Below, in pieces: positions 4,726 through 42,977 of a stretch of 64,000 nucleotides of DNA (position 1 is its first letter; the number at the start of each line of letters is the position of its first letter). Under the pieces are notes generated by a model. The model saw only the letters and a list, made by a program, of their open reading frames with translations. It ran no database searches and was not told where the DNA came from. The translations under genes were made by a program, and so were the position numbers. Origin of the DNA: Escherichia phage CLB_P2; sequence record OL770107. One strand, written 5' to 3'.

Positions 4726-5506
<781 letters not shown>

Positions 5507-5519
<13 letters not shown>

Positions 5520-6379
5520 TGAAACAATACCAATTTTTAATTAAAGATATCCTGGAAAATGGCTACGAAACCGACGACCGTACCGGCACCGGTACAATTG
5601 CACTGTTCGGTACTAAATTACGTTTTGATTTAACTAAAGGCTTTCCTGCAGTAACAACTAAAAAATTAGCATGGAAAGCCTGTATTGCTGAGCTCCTTTG
5701 GTTCCTTTCGGGTTCAACTAACGTTAATGACCTTCGTTTCCGTACTCACGGTTCACTAATTGGCGGTAAAACTATTTGGGACGAGAACTACGAAAATCAG
5801 GCCAAAGACCTAGGTTATCATAGTGGTGAACTTGGTCCGGTATACGGGAAACAATGGCGAGATTTTGGTGGTGTCGACCAGGTTGTAGAAATCATCAACC
5901 GCATTAAAAAGATGCCTAATGACCGACGTCAAATCGTATCTGCATGGAACCCGGCTGAAATCAACCAGATGGCTCTTCCACCGTGCCATTGTTTTTACCA
6001 GTTCAACGTTCGTAATGGACATCTTGACCTCCAGTGGTACCAACGTTCTGTTGACGTGTTCTTAGGATTGCCATTTAATATTGCCTCTTACGCCGCTCTT
6101 GTGCATATTGTAGCTAAGATGTGTAATCTTATTCCGGGCGATTTAGTGTTCTCAGGCGGCAATACACACATCTATTCTAACCACGTTGAACAATGCCAAG
6201 AAGTTCTTCGTCGTGAGCCTAAAGAGCTTTGTGAACTGGAAATTAATTGGCCTGAAGGATTCTCTGATTGGAGCACGACATTACAGCTTCATTGGGTAAC
6301 AGAGCATATGGTCCATGAAGATTTTAAACTCATTGGTTACGAATCACACCCTACCATTAAGGCTAAAATGGCTGTATGA
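5507..6379 (+). CDS. td: thymidylate synthase (290 aa), uninterrupted
   Basis: Thymidylate synthase motifs (DRTGTGT, LPPCH, FYQF, DLGPVYG); a single continuous ORF. Confidence 0.93.
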
Positions 6380-6440
6380 AAATTCAAATTGCTGGTACCT
6401 TATTTTTGGTTATTATGATTGGGCTGAATTTGGTGCTATA

Positions 6441-6734
6441 ATGAGAGTCTGTAGAGTTGTTAACAAGTATAAAGAAGATTTTGATGTCAATATCCAACGC
6501 GGAACCATGTGGGGTAATCCATTTAAAGATGGGACCCGTGAGGAAAACATCAAGAACTTTAAAGAATACTTTATTGCTAAAATAAAATCGGGTGAAATTA
6601 AAAGAGAACATCTTGAAACCCTTAGAGGTATGCGTATAGCGTGTACCTGTAAACCTAAGGACTGTCATGGGGATGTGATAGCCCTGGTTGTTAACAAACT
6701 TTTCAAAGACACGTTCTCATTAGAAGACCTATAA
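6441..6734 (+). CDS. hypothetical Cys/His-motif protein (DUF4326-like), start uncertain
   Basis: Motif GNPF...ACTCKPKDCHGD resembles a small conserved phage domain; first ATG after the td stop is at 6441 but lacks a clear SD. Confidence 0.45.
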   Translation: MRVCRVVNKYKEDFDVNIQRGTMWGNPFKDGTREENIKNFKEYFIAKIKSGEIKREHLETLRGMRIACTCKPKDCHGDVIALVVNKLFKDTFSLEDL

Positions 6735-6743
6735 ATATCAGTC

Positions 6744-6770
6744 CATGCTTAACAGGTTCTATGATAGAAT
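6744..6770 (+). promoter_or_regulatory. candidate middle (MotA-box) promoter for nrdA
   Basis: TGCTTAA at 6746-6752 resembles the MotA box; TAGAAT -10-like element 12 nt downstream; lies in an inverted repeat AGGTTCTAT / ATAGAACCT. Confidence 0.35.
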
Positions 6771-6800
6771 AATTATAGAACCTAACATATTGAGGAAATT

Positions 6801-9056
6801 ATGCAAGTACAAAAAAGTAGCGGTGTATCCCAAGATTTTGACGCACAAAAAATTATTAAAGTTCTGACTTGGGGCTGTGAAGGAACCCAAATCGACCCCT
6901 ATGAATTATACGAAGAAATCAAATCCCATCTTCGTGATGGTATGACCACCAAAGATATCCAGAATCTGACTGTTAAGGTAGCAGCCAACCTTATCTCGGT
7001 TGAAGAACCCGATTACCAATATGTTGCTGCAAAGCAACTGATGTTTGCACTGCGTAAAGAAGTTTATGGGCAGTTCGAACCGCGTAGTTTTATAGACCAT
7101 ATTTCCTATTGTGTTAACGAAGGTAAATATGACCCTGAATTGCTGTCTCGATATTCTGCAGAAGAAATTACTTTCTTAGAATCTCATATCAAGCATGAAC
7201 GCGATTTCGAATTAACCTATGCTGGTGCAATGCAGCTGAAAGAGAAATATCTGGTTAAAGATAAAACAACCGGTAAAATCTACGAAACCCCTCAGTTCGC
7301 TATTATGTGTATTGGTATGGCCTTACACCAAGACGAGCCAGGTAACCGTTTAGCACATATTATTCGTTTTTATGACGCTGTAAGTACTCGTCAGGTTTCG
7401 TTGCCTACTCCTATTATGGCAGGAGCACGTACTCCAACCCGTCAATTTAGTTCTTGTGTGGTTATTGAAGCAGGCGACTCGCTGAAATCTATTAACAAAA
7501 CCGCTAACTCAATAATTGAATACATTTCTAAACGTGCAGGTATTGGTATCAACGTTGGTATGATTCGTGCTGAAGGTTCTCGTATTGGCATGGGTGAAGT
7601 CAAGCATACCGGTGTTATTCCATTCTGGAAACATTTCCAGACTGCTGTTAAATCATGTTCACAAGGTGGAATCCGTGGCGGCGCTGCTACTGCTTATTAT
7701 CCTATTTGGCATTTGGAAGTTGAAAATCTGCTCGTTCTGAAAAACAACAAAGGTGTCGATGAGAACCGTATTCGACATATGGACTACGGAATCCAGTTGA
7801 ACGACCTTATGATGGAACGTTTCGGTAAAAATGATTACATCACGTTGTTCAGTCCTCATGAAATGGGCGGTGAGCTTTATTATTCTTATTTTGAAGACCA
7901 AGAACGTTTCCGTGAATTGTATGAAGCGGCTGAAAAAGACCCTAGCATTCGCAAGAAACGTATTAAAGCACGCGACCTCTTTGAATTGTTCATGACCGAA
8001 CGTTCAGGCACTGCACGAATTTATCCTCAGTTTGTTGATAACACTAACAACTTCACACCATTTATTCGTGAAAAGGCTCCTATTCGCCAGAGTAACTTGT
8101 GTTGTGAAATTGCTATCCCGACCACCGATGTGAATAGTCCGGACGCTGAAATCGGGTTGTGTACGCTGTCTGCATTCGTGTTGGATAACTTTGATTGGCA
8201 AGACCAAGACAAAATCAACGAACTTGCTGAAGTACAGGTACGTGCACTTGATAACTTGTTAGATTATCAAAGCTATCCTGTTCCTGAAGCTTTGAAGGCT
8301 AAGAAACGTCGTAACCTGGGTGTAGGTGTTACGAACTACGCCGCATGGTTAGCAAGCAACTTTGCTTCTTATGAAGATGCAAACGATTTAACTCACGAAT
8401 TGTTTGAGAGATTACAGTATGGACTTATCCGAGCATCAATCAAGTTGGCCGAAGAAAAAGGGCCTTGCGAGTATTATTCAGACACTAAATGGTCTCGAGG
8501 CGAGCTTCCTATCGACTGGTACAATAAAAAGATTGACCAAATCGCAGCCCCAAACTATGTTTGTGACTGGTCGTCGTTGCGGGAAGACTTGGCTAAACAT
8601 GGCATCCGTAATAGCACATTATCAGCACTTATGCCATGCGAGTCAAGCAGCCAAGTTTCCAACTCTACAAACGGTATCGAACCTCCGCGTGGTCCGGTAA
8701 GTATTAAAGAATCTAAAGAAGGTAACTTCCGTCAGGTAGTTCCTAATGTAGAACATAACCAAGGCCTCTATGATTACGCTTGGAGCCTCGCTAAGAAAGG
8801 TAATAAACCTTATCTTACCCAAGTAGCAATTATGTTGAAATGGGTTTGCCAATCTGCATCAGCGAATACGTATTACGACCCTCAGAACTATGAGAAAGGA
8901 AAAGTTCCTATGTCAGTAATGCTTGATGACCTGTTATATTTCTGGTACTTTGGTGGTAAGAACCTTTATTATCATAATACCCGTGATGGCTCTGGTACTG
9001 ACGATTACGAAATCGAAACTCCTAAAGCCGATGATTGCGCAGCTTGTAAGCTTTAA
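6801..9056 (+). CDS. nrdA: ribonucleotide reductase large subunit (751 aa)
   Basis: Class Ia RNR alpha features (N-terminal ATP-cone region, catalytic CE...NLC and C-terminal Cys pair), length and position. Confidence 0.95.
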   Translation: MQVQKSSGVSQDFDAQKIIKVLTWGCEGTQIDPYELYEEIKSHLRDGMTTKDIQNLTVKVAANLISVEEPDYQYVAAKQLMFALRKEVYGQFEPRSFIDHISYCVNEGKYDPELLSRYSAEEITFLESHIKHERDFELTYAGAMQLKEKYLVKDKTTGKIYETPQFAIMCIGMALHQDEPGNRLAHIIRFYDAVSTRQVSLPTPIMAGARTPTRQFSSCVVIEAGDSLKSINKTANSIIEYISKRAGIGINVGMIRAEGSRIGMGEVKHTGVIPFWKHFQTAVKSCSQGGIRGGAATAYYPIWHLEVENLLVLKNNKGVDENRIRHMDYGIQLNDLMMERFGKNDYITLFSPHEMGGELYYSYFEDQERFRELYEAAEKDPSIRKKRIKARDLFELFMTERSGTARIYPQFVDNTNNFTPFIREKAPIRQSNLCCEIAIPTTDVNSPDAEIGLCTLSAFVLDNFDWQDQDKINELAEVQVRALDNLLDYQSYPVPEALKAKKRRNLGVGVTNYAAWLASNFASYEDANDLTHELFERLQYGLIRASIKLAEEKGPCEYYSDTKWSRGELPIDWYNKKIDQIAAPNYVCDWSSLREDLAKHGIRNSTLSALMPCESSSQVSNSTNGIEPPRGPVSIKESKEGNFRQVVPNVEHNQGLYDYAWSLAKKGNKPYLTQVAIMLKWVCQSASANTYYDPQNYEKGKVPMSVMLDDLLYFWYFGGKNLYYHNTRDGSGTDDYEIETPKADDCAACKL

Positions 9057-18223: not shown

Positions 18224-18472
18224 ATGAACAAACATCTGAATCACGCTCTTGAACTGCAACGCAACGCTTGGAACAACGGCCACGAAAACTATGGTGCATC
18301 TATTGATGTTGAAGCCGAAGCACTGGAAATCCTGCGTTATTTCAAACATCTTAATCCTGCTCAGGCTACTCTGGCTGCTGAACTGGAAGCAAAAGATGAA
18401 CTGAAATATGCTAAGCCTTTGGCTTCAGCAGCTCGTAAAGCAGTACGTCATTTTATTATTACCCTGAAGTAA
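18224..18472 (+). CDS. rIII: rIII-like lysis-inhibition accessory protein (82 aa)
   Basis: 82 aa, the same size and position (after gene 31) as T4 rIII; no motif verified. Confidence 0.55.
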   Translation: MNKHLNHALELQRNAWNNGHENYGASIDVEAEALEILRYFKHLNPAQATLAAELEAKDELKYAKPLASAARKAVRHFIITLK

Positions 18473-18825
18473 AATCGAGGAGCCGTCGAACTGTCTGATT
18501 AATGATTTGCGAATCATTATAGTTTTAAGACCCCGGCAGTTTTACGGTGTACCTCTTGAATGTTATTTTATAGCGGCAAGTGCATGCTACCCCGAGGTGA
18601 TGGCCAATCGGGAGTACGCCTCAAGGCCTATATACCCATCAGTATATATCTTATCCTCGAGAAATCGAACCCGGAACCTTTAAGCTAACGGTGTGCAACA
18701 GATAAGAGCTATGATGACGAGGTTTATGGTTATCCTGTCGTTAAATATCCGAAACCTATGTTCCCCTTGAGGGCTTGCGCAGGCAACGCCAATAAGTCCT
18801 GCATTCTAATTTAAGAGATTTAAAA
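18473..18825 (+). other. about 350-nt region without a convincing ORF; candidate structured leader or ncRNA
   Basis: All frames are interrupted; candidate ORFs are 42 aa or shorter and lack a ribosome-binding site; several local inverted repeats. Confidence 0.3.
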
Positions 18826-38147: not shown

Positions 38148-38170
38148 TATAAATATAATTATATTTATAC
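38148..38170. promoter_or_regulatory. divergent late promoters (inh on plus, uvsW on minus)
   Basis: TATAAATA at 38148-38155 on the plus strand and its complement TATTTATA at 38163-38170, each about 30 nt from its ATG. Confidence 0.5.
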
Positions 38171-38188: not shown

Positions 38189-38860
38189 ATGGATACTCAA
38201 TATATTGAAGAGCTTCGTGCACTCGAAGATAAAAAAGAAGCTAAAGCTAAGTTAATCGAATACGGCGAACAGTTCGGTTTAAAACTTAAGAAAACCCGTT
38301 CGTTTGATAATTTGATTATCGATATCTCTGAAGGCCTTAAAGCCCTGGCTGATGAACCACTTCCAGAAACCGAAGGTTTGTCTATTTCTGATTTGATTGA
38401 TGCCGCCGACGAACTCACAGGTGCTAACGAATTTGTTGATGGTGCTGAACCTGCCAAAGAAGAAGCTACCCTATTATTTGATGCCCCTGAAGCGGTAGTT
38501 GAAGTTATTGAGGTAGCCGAACTTCCTAAGGTAGAGATTATTGAAGAAGATGTTCCTTTTGTCGAAGAGAAATTCAAAGAGGCTGTAGCCGAGGTTATTG
38601 AATCTGAAAAACCTGTATTCTCTTTGCCTGAAAACTTTAGTCCTAATCTTTTGCTTATTGGTAAAAACCCTGGTTACTGTACTGTTCCTTGGTGGATTTA
38701 TCAATGGATTTCTGAAACCCCTGATTGGAAAGACCGTCCTAAAGATTTCCAACACCCTTCTGCCCACCAAACATTATTCAGTCTGATTTATTACATCAAT
38801 CGTAATGGCTCAGTATTAGTACGTGAAACACGTAATTCATCTTTTGTAACTTTAAAATAA
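38189..38860 (+). CDS. inh: Inh-like protein (inhibitor of prohead protease), 223 aa
   Basis: Acidic protein located between uvsW and hoc as T4 inh; assigned by synteny and size. Confidence 0.5.
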   Translation: MDTQYIEELRALEDKKEAKAKLIEYGEQFGLKLKKTRSFDNLIIDISEGLKALADEPLPETEGLSISDLIDAADELTGANEFVDGAEPAKEEATLLFDAPEAVVEVIEVAELPKVEIIEEDVPFVEEKFKEAVAEVIESEKPVFSLPENFSPNLLLIGKNPGYCTVPWWIYQWISETPDWKDRPKDFQHPSAHQTLFSLIYYINRNGSVLVRETRNSSFVTLK

Positions 38861-38869
38861 GGGTAAAAT

Positions 38870-40282
38870 ATGGCTTTTACTGTAAGTATAGCCGGCGCTG
38901 CGTCTATTAAAATAGGCGAAAGCGCCAACTACACTGCTACCGCAACAGGTGCAGCTGTAGAAGGAACCGTTACATATGTATGGACCATTGACGGTGCTTC
39001 TAATCCGGAGGCAACCAATGTTTTGAGATATACCGGTGCGGCTCCAGCTGGTAAGAAAGTTTTAAAAGTAGTAGCAACTTCTACTCCGGCCGAAGGCGAA
39101 CCTGAGGTAGCTGAAAAAACTTTTGAAGTTACCGTAGCTAATAAGACCATGACTATTTCTTTGGCCTTAGACCCTACTTCCGTTTCTAAAGAAATTGGCC
39201 AGTCCCAAGTTGTTACTGCTAACGTGACGGGTGCTCCTGCTGGTGCTACAATTGCTTATGTTTGGAAACGTAATACAACTGTAATTTCAGGACAAACTGG
39301 TAAAACTATTACTGTAACCGAAGCAGCAGAAGCAAATTACACGTTGAACTGTGAAGTTACTGTTACCGCCCCTGAATATGACCCGGGTACCGCTACTAAA
39401 GGTGTTGCGGTAACTTTTGTTAAGAAAACTATATCAGGTGCTTCCGTTACTTTAACACCAGCCTCAATTAGTACAGAGAAAGGCTCATCTGCACAGTTTA
39501 AAGCGGATGTAGTTGGCGCTCCTTCCGGCGTAAATGCAACTTATTCTTGGAAGAAAAATGGTTCTATTATTCCAGGCGAAAGCAGTAATATTCTTGCCGT
39601 CGATACATCTACAATAGGTTCTTACTCTATTGAAGTTTCGGTACTCCTAAAAGGTACGGATTATAATGATTTAACCGTTACCAAAACAGGAAGTGTAACA
39701 ATTACTAAAAAGACTATGGCAGGTGTTTCTGTTAATTTAACGCCTGCTTCTATTACTGTCTCTGAAGGAATCCCGGCTTCTTTTAAAACCACGGTAGTCG
39801 GTGCGCCTAGTGGTGCTACTTTTGCTTATTCTTGGAAGAAAGATGGTTCACCTGTTGTGGGTGCTACGGATACATTAGTAATTGACACAAGCGCTGAAGG
39901 TTCACAGGTTATTGAAGTTTCTGTTGTGGTTTCGGCTACCGACTATAATTCTGTGACCGTCACAAAATCCGGTAATGTAACAATTACGGCTAAAGTCGCT
40001 CCTGAACCAGAGGGCGAACTACCTTACGTTCATCCGCTACCAGTTCGTAATTCAGCTTATATTTGGTGTGGTTGGTGGGTTATGGACGAAATTCAGAAAA
40101 TGACCCTTGAAGGCAAAGACTGGAAAACTGACGAACCTGATAGTGAATATTATCTCCATCGTTATACCCTTCAAAAAATGGTAGCCGATTATCCTGAGGT
40201 TGATGTACAGGAATCTCGTAATGGTAGAATTATTCACAGAACCGCTTTGGATGCTGGAATTATTTACGATTACGTTTATTAA
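38870..40282 (+). CDS. hoc: Hoc outer capsid decoration protein with four Ig-like domains (470 aa)
   Basis: C-terminal capsid-binding region (AKVAPEPEGELPYVHPLP...AYIWCGWWVMDEIQKMT.EGKDWKTD...EVDVQESRNG) matches T4 Hoc; four Ig-like repeats each with the Y.W pattern. Confidence 0.92.
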   Translation: MAFTVSIAGAASIKIGESANYTATATGAAVEGTVTYVWTIDGASNPEATNVLRYTGAAPAGKKVLKVVATSTPAEGEPEVAEKTFEVTVANKTMTISLALDPTSVSKEIGQSQVVTANVTGAPAGATIAYVWKRNTTVISGQTGKTITVTEAAEANYTLNCEVTVTAPEYDPGTATKGVAVTFVKKTISGASVTLTPASISTEKGSSAQFKADVVGAPSGVNATYSWKKNGSIIPGESSNILAVDTSTIGSYSIEVSVLLKGTDYNDLTVTKTGSVTITKKTMAGVSVNLTPASITVSEGIPASFKTTVVGAPSGATFAYSWKKDGSPVVGATDTLVIDTSAEGSQVIEVSVVVSATDYNSVTVTKSGNVTITAKVAPEPEGELPYVHPLPVRNSAYIWCGWWVMDEIQKMTLEGKDWKTDEPDSEYYLHRYTLQKMVADYPEVDVQESRNGRIIHRTALDAGIIYDYVY

Positions 40283-40286
40283 TAAA

Positions 40287-40310
40287 GGGCCGCAAGGCCC
40301 TTATTTAGTT
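40287..40310 (+). terminator. rho-independent terminator after hoc
   Basis: GGGCC-GCAA-GGCCC hairpin followed by TTATTTAGTTT. Confidence 0.6.
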
Positions 40311-40367
40311 TATGATAATGTTTCGGGAGATTAAGTTATTGACGAATAATTTTTAATAGGTGGATAT

Positions 40368-40547
40368 ATGAAATTTAACAAAGATATAGGGTTGTTGGTT
40401 TTCTTTATAGTGCTGTTTTTGTTTTCGTTAATTTCATTAACTAGTGGGTTGTTTGCTTCTATATTGGCTCTTTTCACATGCATTAGTTCCTTTTTTGGGA
40501 TAATAGCTACTATAGATAAAATTTTACATACCAAAAAGGGCCCGTAG
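40368..40547 (+). CDS. small predicted membrane protein (about 59 aa)
   Basis: SD AGGTGG 6 nt before the ATG; hydrophobic product (MKFNKDIGLLVFFIVLFLFSLISLTSGLFASILALFTCISSFFGIIATI...); followed by a terminator. Too short for the ORF track. Confidence 0.45.
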   Translation: MKFNKDIGLLVFFIVLFLFSLISLTSGLFASILALFTCISSFFGIIATIDKILHTKKGP

Positions 40548-40560
40548 GCCCTTTATTATT
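40531..40560. terminator. bidirectional terminator
   Basis: GGGCC-CGTA-GGCCC hairpin flanked by an A-run upstream and TTTATTATTTTT downstream; serves the plus small ORF and the minus Hoc-like gene. Confidence 0.6.
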
Positions 40561-41422
40561 TTTCAGGAGGGACGTAAACTAAGTCTTTCCTTTCTAAGAT
40601 GTAGCCATTTCTCGACTCTTGTATCTCTACTTCAGGATACTTAGACAAAAGGTCGGCTACTTTTTGTAACTCACATTTATACTTGTATGGGCTGTTGTTT
40701 ATATCCAAAGTCCAATCTTCTCCCAATCTAACGGCTTCTCTTATTTCGTCCCATACCCACCAACCTATCCACATATACGATTCATTTCTTCCACCGCCAT
40801 ATGGTAAATAAGCATTAAGGTCGTTATCATATATGAAAGGGCACTGCAATACATCATCCCTAGGTTTTATTTCAACTAAAAGTTCTTCAGAAGCAGGGAT
40901 ATATGCTCCTTCGCAGGTCGCTATAGATTTTAATGTATAATCTCCAAATTTATCAGGGTCGTCTATTAATATATCAATATCTTCGTCTTTAGATAATTCT
41001 ACTCCATCTCTATACCATCTACAAATTCTTTCGGCATAAGTGGGTTCCACTCTACACGACGGGCGAAGTGAAACTGTTTCTCCTATATTGGCATATATTA
41101 ATTCCCTAGAGTTTATATCTAGGACTATTCTTCTTGGAAGGGTACCTATTTCAAGTTCTATTTCGTTACTCTTTGTTATTTCACCACTTTTCTTATTTGT
41201 TATGGTCGCATAAAATGTTCCTGCCGCCGGGAATCCTACTTCCCATAAATTTAATTCAAAAGGGTCTTCGGTAGGAAGTTGTGGAATATGGACATCGTTT
41301 TTATACCAATTAATTTCTACATCATCTAGAGTAGAACCGGGTGGTAATACAAACCCGGTATAAAAGGTTACTGTCCTGCCAACCAATTCATATCTAGGAC
41401 CATTTATTTTAAGTACAATCAT
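40556..41422 (-). CDS. second Hoc-like protein: two Ig-like domains plus a Hoc-type capsid-binding C-terminus (288 aa)
   Basis: C-terminus (NESYMWIGWWVWDEIREAVRLGEDWTLD...KYPEVEIQESRNGYILE) parallels the Hoc C-terminal domain; N-terminal region has Ig-like W.Y and Y.C patterns; SD AGGAGG couples it to the upstream collagen-like gene. Confidence 0.75.
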   Translation of the reverse strand: MIVLKINGPRYELVGRTVTFYTGFVLPPGSTLDDVEINWYKNDVHIPQLPTEDPFELNLWEVGFPAAGTFYATITNKKSGEITKSNEIELEIGTLPRRIVLDINSRELIYANIGETVSLRPSCRVEPTYAERICRWYRDGVELSKDEDIDILIDDPDKFGDYTLKSIATCEGAYIPASEELLVEIKPRDDVLQCPFIYDNDLNAYLPYGGGRNESYMWIGWWVWDEIREAVRLGEDWTLDINNSPYKYKCELQKVADLLSKYPEVEIQESRNGYILERKDLVYVPPEK

Positions 41423-41431
41423 TTAACCTCC

Positions 41432-42937
41432 TTAAAACGTGCTCATATTGGTATGGTCTTCGACAGAAAATAAAACTTCAACAGGGATATCTGTAGTCGT
41501 ATTAAGAGGGCCGCCTACAATAAACACAGATACAGTGTAGTATTTTCTAGTATCACGGTCAAATATTTCGTAACGGTTAAATTGTCTTGCACTAGAATAA
41601 GCCAAATCGTCGAATAATTCAGGAGATGATGACCACAACACATTACTCCAGTTGGCACATTCTATTCCGTTTTCATAGTTGGTAAATCTTTTAATATCAA
41701 GCCTATTAGTAAGACCTGCATTAGTAGCCCTTATATGGATGCCTACAGATGAGTACATGCGAACATGAAGAACCATATTAAGGTCCCACAAACGTATTTC
41801 CTTCCACTCTGAAGTGTTCAGAGGCTTATCAAATCTTAAAGAGCCTTTCCAATATCTAGGTGGATAGAATGGGAAAAGTTTATCATATAAAGATTTTAAT
41901 TGAGACTGGGTTAAAGAATCGACATCAAATACTGCATCTTTGCCTGGCGCACCTGCAGGACCTATAGGACCTTGAATACCTTGAGGACCTTGATCGCCTT
42001 TTTCACCTTTAGGTCCTGGATTACCTTGTGGACCCTGCGGCCCTTGAGCACCGGGCGCGCCATCTTCTCCTGGATATCCAGGTCTTCCTTCTTGTACAAA
42101 CAAATGCCAATAATCAACCCATAGGTCTCCACGGCCTGGATAACTATCATTATTTGCTATATTGTCCTGAATACAAATCCAAGAAGACCCTTCGCACTGG
42201 ACTAAATCATTTACATAATAAGGTGTGCCAGGGTCCCAGTTTCCGGCCCAGATAAACCCATTACCATCTTGGCCTGGCGCGCCTTGTGGACCTTGAGGGC
42301 CGGTTGGGCCTGTTGGTCCTTGAGGACCTGGTGCACCGATATTAGCCAATAGCGCCCAAACTCCTTCGCTAGGAGGTATTGTTCCTGTATTAGAACTGAT
42401 GCAAAAATAAGAAGCTCCCTGGTATCCAACTGCATCGTCTTTAGAGTATTGGGTAGATTCATCCCAGGCTCCCTTCCACACCAAACCTGCCGGGCCTATA
42501 GGACCTTGTGGTCCTTGCGGTCCTACTTCTCCTTGGGCCCCTTGTAAACCCTGAGGGCCTTCTTTTCCTGGTGAACCCGGGTCTCCTTTAGGACCTTCTG
42601 GACCTGCTGGTCCTGGTTCGCCCTTTTCTCCTTTAGGACCCGGGTTACCTTGAATACCTTGCGGCCCTGGGTCTCCTTTAGGGCCTTGTGGACCTTCAGT
42701 ACCAGGTGTTAGCATCTCATTAGTTATACCTAAATGGGCCAACGCGCCTTCCCTAGAAGCTTGTTTTATAAATTCAAGTCCATAACTTTGAGAAGAATCC
42801 AACATAGTAGGGTCTAAGGTGCTTTCACTAGTGAGTATGTCTGCAAATTCCAATGATTTATCCTGCGGAACTTCTACTAATGATACGCCTCTAAAGTGAC
42901 CTCTACCGTCATGCCCGTATAATGGATTGTCTGACAT
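41432..42937 (-). CDS. collagen-like triple-helix repeat protein with two carbohydrate-binding-like (CBM5/12-type) modules (501 aa)
   Basis: Three Gly-X-Y runs of about 24, 8 and 17 triplets, separated by W.G.WD...Y...D.V...G.S(Y/W).CI modules; SD CAGGAG before the ATG; first gene of a two-gene minus-strand operon. Confidence 0.8.
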
Positions 42938-42947
42938 AAAATCTCCT

Positions 42948-42977
42948 GTTTACAAGTTAAAATTCTCATGTTACTAT
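42948..42977 (+). promoter_or_regulatory. early-type promoter
   Basis: GTTTAC 42948-42953, TACTAT 42972-42977, 18-nt spacer. Confidence 0.4.

Follow-up and report, generated by a model that had tools for sequence, protein, structure and literature searches.

The hyperplastic regions of T4-type phages harbor ORFan modules bounded by stem-loop cassettes (PeSLs), and a strong early sigma70-like promoter joined to the stem-loop is a defining part of a PeSL (Arbiol et al. 2010, PMC2839356; Comeau et al. 2014, PMC4122927). It has also been described that ORFs encoding transmembrane (TM) peptides can emerge de novo from thymine-rich sequence (Vakirlis et al. 2020, PMC7005711). Among small phage membrane proteins, class II holins and pinholins such as S21 68 of phage 21 are about 60-70 amino acids long, with two adjacent hydrophobic segments and a very short turn, and the T-even phage T4 has Imm, a membrane protein that is likewise small and is not essential. 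The T4 exclusion genes, including imm, are early genes with early promoters. CLB_P2 is a T4-type coliphage of the genus Dhakavirus that is used in gut phage-therapy models, and the phage group to which it belongs uses the T4 gpt holin, which is unrelated to the class II holins.

The ORF that is the subject of this work is located on the plus strand at 40368-40547 of a 64,000-nucleotide window of CLB_P2 (the whole stretch of DNA that was analyzed), with an ATG at 40368-40370, a TAG at 40545-40547, and the product MKFNKDIGLLVFFIVLFLFSLISLTSGLFASILALFTCISSFFGIIATIDKILHTKKGP. A Shine-Dalgarno (SD) sequence, AGGTGG (40358-40363, plus strand), is spaced 4 nt from the ATG, and in the predicted fold of positions -40 to +40 both the SD and the AUG are unpaired; the 59-codon ORF and ribosome-binding site of the original prediction are thus exact. 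The gene order at the locus is uvsW(-), inh(+), hoc(+), the ORF, Hoc-like(-), collagen-like(-), 24.3-like(+), and rnlB(+), and hoc of the window is 100% identical to hoc of OZ035781 (Dhakavirus CLBP2). The ORF had been placed between the terminator of hoc and a bidirectional terminator shared with the Hoc-like gene, and both hairpins are real. Hairpin 1, the intrinsic terminator of hoc (AAGGGCC GCAA GGCCCTT; 40285-40302, plus strand), is positioned 3' of the hoc stop, has a stability of -14.9 kcal/mol in context, and carries an interrupted U-tract, UUAUUUAGUUUAU; between it and the SD is an AT-rich leader of 55 nt (40303-40357, plus strand) that differs from the leader in phage IME341 by a 3-nt indel and two substitutions. 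Hairpin 2 (AAAGGGCC CGTA GGCCCTTT; 40535-40554) is a terminator on both strands, with U-tracts on plus and minus and stabilities of -13.1 and -14.4 kcal/mol, respectively. This hairpin encodes the last codons of the ORF (K K G P) and its stop, with the A-run specifying K56 and K57, and it also terminates the convergent Hoc-like gene, whose stop (40556-40558) is 1 nt away. The motif AAGGGCC-N4-GGCCCTT occurs exactly twice in the window, once on each side of the ORF.

The convergent cassette itself (40556-42937, minus strand) encodes a shorter, 288-aa paralogue of Hoc along with a protein of 501 aa that contains long stretches of collagen-like Gly-X-Y repeats and is annotated as 'tail fiber protein' in JS10; the 288-aa protein and Hoc have in common a C-terminal capsid-binding-type region, ...WIGWWVWDEI.... 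In the related phage dhabil, a 37-aa 'hypothetical protein' (dhabil_242; dhabil 4939-5052) is annotated out of frame over the 3' end of hoc and through the hoc terminator, and is probably spurious.

The distribution of the ORF was assessed by blastn and tblastn against 50,697 phage records, and the region was found in six records representing five genomes: CLBP2, dhaeg, and dhabil, which are mutually identical, Ec2-ASingh, with 2 amino acid changes, and IME341, with 7. All five carriers have an intact ORF, SD, and start, and the SD of IME341, AGGTGA, keeps its complementarity to the 3' end of the 16S rRNA. The module is absent from JS10, IME08, UP19, MN01, ABTNLsp5, KIT01, and VR20, and a blastn search of phage records with the 278-nt region (word size 11) gave no match beyond the carriers; a search of IMG/VR returned IME341 again and nothing further, and no match was found in E. 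coli genomes and plasmids or, using peptide patterns and a 44-nt degenerate DNA pattern, in JGI metagenomes and GTDB genomes. At the protein level, a word search of 5.8 billion protein clusters gave no match, the exact protein is absent among approximately 15 billion predicted proteins, and an exhaustive phmmer search of 1.84 billion representatives yielded no homologue. The sole phmmer match, a eukaryote-like repeat protein matched in six stretches, was rejected as a low-complexity artefact. The best Pfam match was DUF4386 at 17.2 bits, below the cut-off of 27.6; the best match in PHROGs had an E value of 0.11, NCBIfam gave nothing below E=1.5, and PADLOC gave no match.

Gene content between hoc and 24.3 is plastic. 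In UP19 and VR20, hoc is followed directly by 24.3, IME08 has an added convergent Hoc-like gene, and JS10, KIT01, and ABTNLsp5 have the Hoc-like gene together with a collagen-like or 'tail fiber' gene. Where the cassette is present and the ORF is not, the distance from hoc to the Hoc-like gene is 26-32 nt (KIT01, ABTNLsp5, IME08) or 44 nt (JS10) and contains one common hairpin; the outgroup spacers at the locus are 26-104 nt of unrelated sequence. In the Gaprivervirus MN01, a 944-aa co-oriented ORF (5754-8588) follows the same hoc terminator in place of the Hoc-like cassette. Hairpin 1, with its GCAA loop, is also found after hoc in UP19 and MN01, both of which lack the ORF, while in ABTNLsp5, IME08, and KIT01, also without the ORF, the single hairpin between hoc and the Hoc-like gene is homologous to hairpin 2 and is preceded by ACCAAAAAAGGG. 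Hairpin 2 together with its preceding ACCAAAAAGGG corresponds to this common terminator, so that the ORF takes its last 4-5 codons, (T)KKGP, and its stop from a non-coding terminator that is also present in phages without the ORF. Because the two hairpins match different relatives, their origin by duplication was rejected, and about 230-250 nt of orphan DNA lies between what appear to be terminators of different ancestry, the ancestral one of hoc and that of the Hoc-like cassette.

IME341 has kept the ORF and lost the Hoc-like/collagen-like cassette through a deletion of approximately 2.2 kb. When the IME341 locus (5244-5339) was compared with positions 42727-42823 and 40526-40554 of the window, hairpin 2 of IME341 was found to be fused to an approximately 100-nt, 83%-identical remnant from the 5' portion of the collagen-like gene (42727-42823 of the window), and its plus-strand U-tract is lost. 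The junction is a microhomology, ATACC-AAA-GGGCC...CCTT, shared by the terminator (ATACCAAAAAGGGCC..CCCTT) and the collagen-like gene (ATACCTAAATGGGCC..CCTT). The remnant and the microhomology at the junction indicate that IME341 arose by deletion and that the ORF outlasted this event.

Judged by its sequence and surroundings, the module is an ORFan in a plastic T4-type region, bounded by stem-loops as in PeSLs. Like the ORFan modules of PeSLs, it contains a small ORF that is present or absent between very close relatives and lies next to plastic, non-essential genes; the two near-identical hairpins around it have the A3G3CC-loop-GGC3T3 stem-loop form of nt-1-type PeSLs, and the nearby rearrangement in IME341 used hairpin-associated microhomology. 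However, neither hairpin is joined to an early promoter, and the hairpins are therefore not composite promoter-terminator cassettes; furthermore, they appear to be of separate ancestry, and the locus is within a block of late structural genes.

The peptide is largely hydrophobic, as had been predicted, with a GRAVY of 1.32 and an unbroken hydrophobic stretch at residues 7-49 (a 43-residue core). The proposal of two TM segments held for the first segment and less well for the second. When two non-overlapping 19-residue windows were scored on the Hessa scale, the strongly predicted TM1 (residues 7-25; 40386-40442, plus strand; KD 2.8) gave a sum of -4.1 kcal/mol, and the second, weaker segment (residues 28-49; 40449-40514, plus strand) gave -1.5 kcal/mol for residues 28-46; by these scores TM1 is solid and TM2 is marginal. 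Moreover, AlphaFold2 with the single sequence predicts one continuous helix at residues 2-56 (pLDDT 90.8) rather than a hairpin, and G27, the sole glycine in the proposed turn, is replaced by valine in IME341. Residues 28-49, whose amino acids are invariant in all carriers, carry a stripe of small residues (A30, S31, A34, C38, S41, G44, A47). A second TM helix is plausible.

The size, the adjacent hydrophobic segments, and the very short turn of the peptide resemble those of class II holins and pinholins, as do its short polar N-terminus and basic C-terminus; basic residues at both ends are compatible with an N-in/C-in hairpin. The product differs from pinholins, however, in having neither a holin-family match nor a dual-start motif and in the marginal TM2, and there is no lysis cassette at the locus, where the neighbors of the ORF are hoc, Hoc-like, collagen-like, 24.3, and rnlB; the spanin-like genes of dhaeg are approximately 27 kb from the ORF locus. 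Similarly, the ORF would resemble T4 imm and other small T4 membrane ORFs in encoding a membrane protein that is small and non-essential to a T-even-type phage, but its product has no similarity to the Imm or Sp families in Pfam or PHROGs, and its expression would be late. The earlier suggestion of a role in lysis timing or superinfection exclusion thus found no direct support, as there is no holin or Imm family match, the lysis genes are not nearby, and there is no early promoter.

The only recognizable promoter able to feed the ORF, via read-through, is an exact match to the T4-type late promoter, TATAAATA, at 38148-38155 (plus strand), upstream of inh-hoc (inh start at 38189). With one or two mismatches allowed, no sigma70, T4-early, MotA, or late promoter was found in the leader of the ORF, and no sigma70, T4-early, or MotA-type promoter was found in 40270-40370. 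A candidate that is one mismatch from the late consensus, TATTAATA (40277-40284, plus strand), overlaps the double stop of hoc directly before hairpin 1, and a transcript starting there would skip the left arm of the terminator; the equivalent stretch is TATTAATA in MN01 and TATTAATT in UP19 and IME08. Because the same stretch occurs in these phages, all of which lack the ORF, the match is probably coincidental, and this candidate was rejected as the promoter of the ORF. As the ORF has no promoter of its own, its expression would need read-through of hairpin 1. In the literature, no paper reporting a transcriptome or proteome of CLB_P2 was found. The early promoter nearest to the ORF is of the T4 type (TTTACA-N17-TACTAT with TG; 42949-42977, plus strand) and is located just before the 24.3-like gene, where the collagen-like gene starts back-to-back with it; UP19, IME341, and IME08 have this promoter conserved. 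Directly upstream of the Hoc-like/collagen-like cassette, the minus strand has no canonical late promoter.

Whether the ORF is a real translated gene is, on the sequence evidence, about evenly balanced, and the same even weight is given to the reading that best accounts for the locus, namely that the ORF is a dispensable, lineage-restricted accessory ORFan of the CLB_P2/dhaeg/dhabil/Ec2-ASingh/IME341 subclade of Dhakavirus, which would encode a 59-aa inner-membrane peptide expressed late by terminator read-through. In this reading, transcription would occur late and at a low level from TATAAATA at 38148, passing through the hoc hairpin with its interrupted U-tract, and translation would begin at the ORF's own unstructured SD. 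After insertion, both basic ends of the peptide (MKFNKD..., ...DKILHTKKGP) would face the cytoplasm, whether it forms a tight two-helix hairpin or one long helix, and it may self-associate or bind a membrane protein via the small-residue face of the second segment. The likeliest guess at a function would be a modifier of late membrane events, for example lysis timing or membrane energization, and exclusion of superinfecting phages or the blocking of a host membrane factor would be less likely guesses; any single named function is doubtful at best. A late membrane role would fit better than a T4-style early exclusion, because expression is predicted to be late and dependent on read-through.

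The strongest competing explanation, which is possible if on the doubtful side, is that the region is a non-functional spacer of T-rich orphan DNA left by illegitimate recombination at the terminator hairpins, in which the ORF is what remains of a decayed gene or an accident of T-rich sequence, whose translation gives hydrophobic residues, and is either untranslated or neutral. Such an origin would be in keeping with the missing promoter and the stable terminator upstream, with an ORF whose end is a run into a pre-existing terminator, with both strands being open, as expected for stop-poor filler, and with the TM-like peptides known from T-rich non-genic DNA (PMC7005711). Against this, when the 245-nt spacer was dinucleotide-shuffled, 1.0% of the trials contained a plus-strand ATG ORF with 59 or more codons, 0.2% one that also had an SD-like 4-mer, and 0.06% one that was in addition equally hydrophobic. 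Because shuffles rarely yield such an ORF, it is not a random feature of the sequence, although it does not follow that it is a functioning gene. In this genome, an SD-like 4-mer precedes 62% of annotated genes compared to 12% of all ATGs. Filler of 270 nt is also rarely tolerated by T4-type genomes: without a gene, the 273-nt gap would rank as the second largest in approximately 38 kb of annotated dhaeg sequence, in which only one gap exceeds 160 nt. Finally, the module has been kept across isolates, including those from Denmark (dhaeg, dhabil), and through the neighboring deletion in IME341. Separately, the largest unannotated gap in these 38 kb of dhaeg, 353 nt (18262-18614) between rIII and 30.9, has no convincing ORF (at best a 58-aa TTG frame and a 42-aa ATG frame), and no Rfam family was found at the gathering score in the whole window.

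The substitutions bear on both readings. Across IME341 and Ec2-ASingh, the ORF has 14 substitutions (9 nonsynonymous and 5 synonymous) and 0 indels; random placement of these substitutions, which number only 14, expects 10.2 nonsynonymous changes (P=0.32), and under neutrality the frame would still be open in 65% of cases. The dN/dS of the ORF in IME341 is approximately 0.65, which is near neutral, as expected of a spacer; however, these counts are too weak to show purifying selection because the carriers are too similar. On the other side, the SD and start are conserved, and the ORF is open in three sequence variants with up to 5.6% nucleotide divergence, with no indel inside it and a 3-nt indel in the leader just upstream. 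Furthermore, the hydropathy of the replacements (L>V, V>I, L>M, I>V, G>V) is conserved, a modest signal, with a sum|dKD| of 11.8 versus 26.5 expected (P=0.019, one of three statistics tried); the BLOSUM loss of the replacements gave P=0.20. At residues 12-26 and 29-53, the amino acids are invariant and there are 4 synonymous changes. That CLB_P2 and dhaeg are 100% identical in the ORF (hoc, 96%) was rejected as a signal of constraint, because near-identity extends over a 2-kb tract that includes the ORF and the differences in hoc are concentrated in its Ig-domain part. A lack of conservation as coding in relatives, which the original prediction had named as grounds for refutation, is not cleanly applicable as a test, since most relatives lack the DNA altogether, and the gene reading is itself weakened by the fact that most Dhakaviruses examined do without the ORF.

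Composition was measured with a second-order, 3-periodic Markov model for which dhaeg genes of more than 300 nt served as the training set, and here the ORF scored intermediate to low, in the direction of the spacer reading. Its score was -0.087 per codon, compared to a mean of 0.16 (sd 0.10) for annotated small genes, 25 of 26 of which scored higher, the lone exception being a 35-mer that is also hydrophobic. Spurious ORFs had a mean of -0.22 (sd 0.10), placing the ORF 1.3 sd above them, with 7.5% of them exceeding it. T accounts for 43% of the coding strand, and codon use is atypical, with a predominance of rare codons: 6 of the 9 Ile codons are ATA, 3 of the 4 Gly codons are GGG, and 5 of the 10 Leu codons are TTG. 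The ORF is unannotated in dhaeg, dhabil, and IME341, skipped by gene callers in these three genomes even though they list ORFs as short as 32 and 35 aa (32-35 aa in dhaeg).

It is unlikely, though it deserves mention, that the ORF is a very young proto-gene, in which a T-rich orphan insert gained an SD and a start and is now selected only for hydrophobicity; in that scenario the pre-existing bidirectional terminator would supply the basic C-terminus KKGP and the stop. The ORF resembles the TM-peptide ORFs of Vakirlis et al. in being T-rich, TM-like, and lineage-restricted, in having no homologues, near-neutral evolution, and atypical codons, and in having a 3' end recruited from non-coding terminator DNA. 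It differs from them in that the sister genomes have no homologous non-coding precursor but lack the whole segment. An origin in place is not supported, because there is no homologous DNA in the sister genomes, and this pattern points to acquisition of the whole segment from an unsampled source rather than birth in place.

A further explanation, which is quite improbable, is that the real gene is on the opposite strand. The GenBank annotation of CLB_P2 lists here a hypothetical protein, UNI73280.1, encoded by an antisense 67-codon ORF (40534..40331, minus strand) with a TTG start and no SD; an internal ATG at 40483, preceded by AAGGAA, would give 50 aa. The original prediction had not mentioned this open antisense frame, and no gene is annotated over this DNA in dhaeg, dhabil, or IME341. 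A gene of 67 aa from the TTG, or of 50 aa from the ATG, would run in the same direction as the collagen-like and Hoc-like genes and, on the minus strand, would likewise be flanked by the hairpins; every variant keeps its frame intact, and it has the higher Markov score, 0.023 versus -0.087 for the sense ORF. However, the TTG abuts the U-tract of the terminator, and AAGGAA, the only SD-like motif of the antisense ORF, is destroyed in Ec2-ASingh (AATGAA). The antisense substitutions are nonsynonymous and radical in 12 of 15 cases (N>I, P>H, S>Y, C>R), and the conservation tests gave no signal (P=0.88 and 0.47). The antisense product is N/K/I-rich and of low complexity, which is typical of AT-rich antisense translation and is the kind of peptide expected when a T-rich hydrophobic gene is read backwards; it has no homologue besides itself, and a search for contigs encoding it was empty. 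In IME341, the frame would stand alone on the minus strand, behind the remnant of a gene. The antisense ORF is rated well below the sense ORF, and the GenBank call looks as if composition-based gene calling had picked the wrong strand at a hydrophobic ORF.

That the region acts instead as RNA or DNA, as a double-terminator insulator between the hoc and Hoc-like units or as a 3'-UTR-derived small RNA, is very improbable: two stable hairpins do bracket it, the second bidirectional, and the ORF has no independent promoter, but relatives with the same convergent genes make do with one hairpin in a gap of 26-32 nt, Rfam gave no match, no notable structure is seen in the interior (TIR fold z = 0.08), and neither a 59-codon open frame nor an SD would be required.

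Taken together, the comparative signal, though weak, favors the sense strand over the annotated antisense ORF, and the locus is a caution for annotation, as composition-based callers skipped a hydrophobic, rare-codon ORF in three genomes and chose its antisense shadow in a fourth. There is no sign of an unusual mechanism for the ORF, and the biological stakes are small. If the ORF is a gene, it would be another dispensable small membrane ORFan in a plastic T4-type region, and the proto-gene reading, if true, would make it a tractable case of gene birth or ORFan fixation in a T4-type phage.
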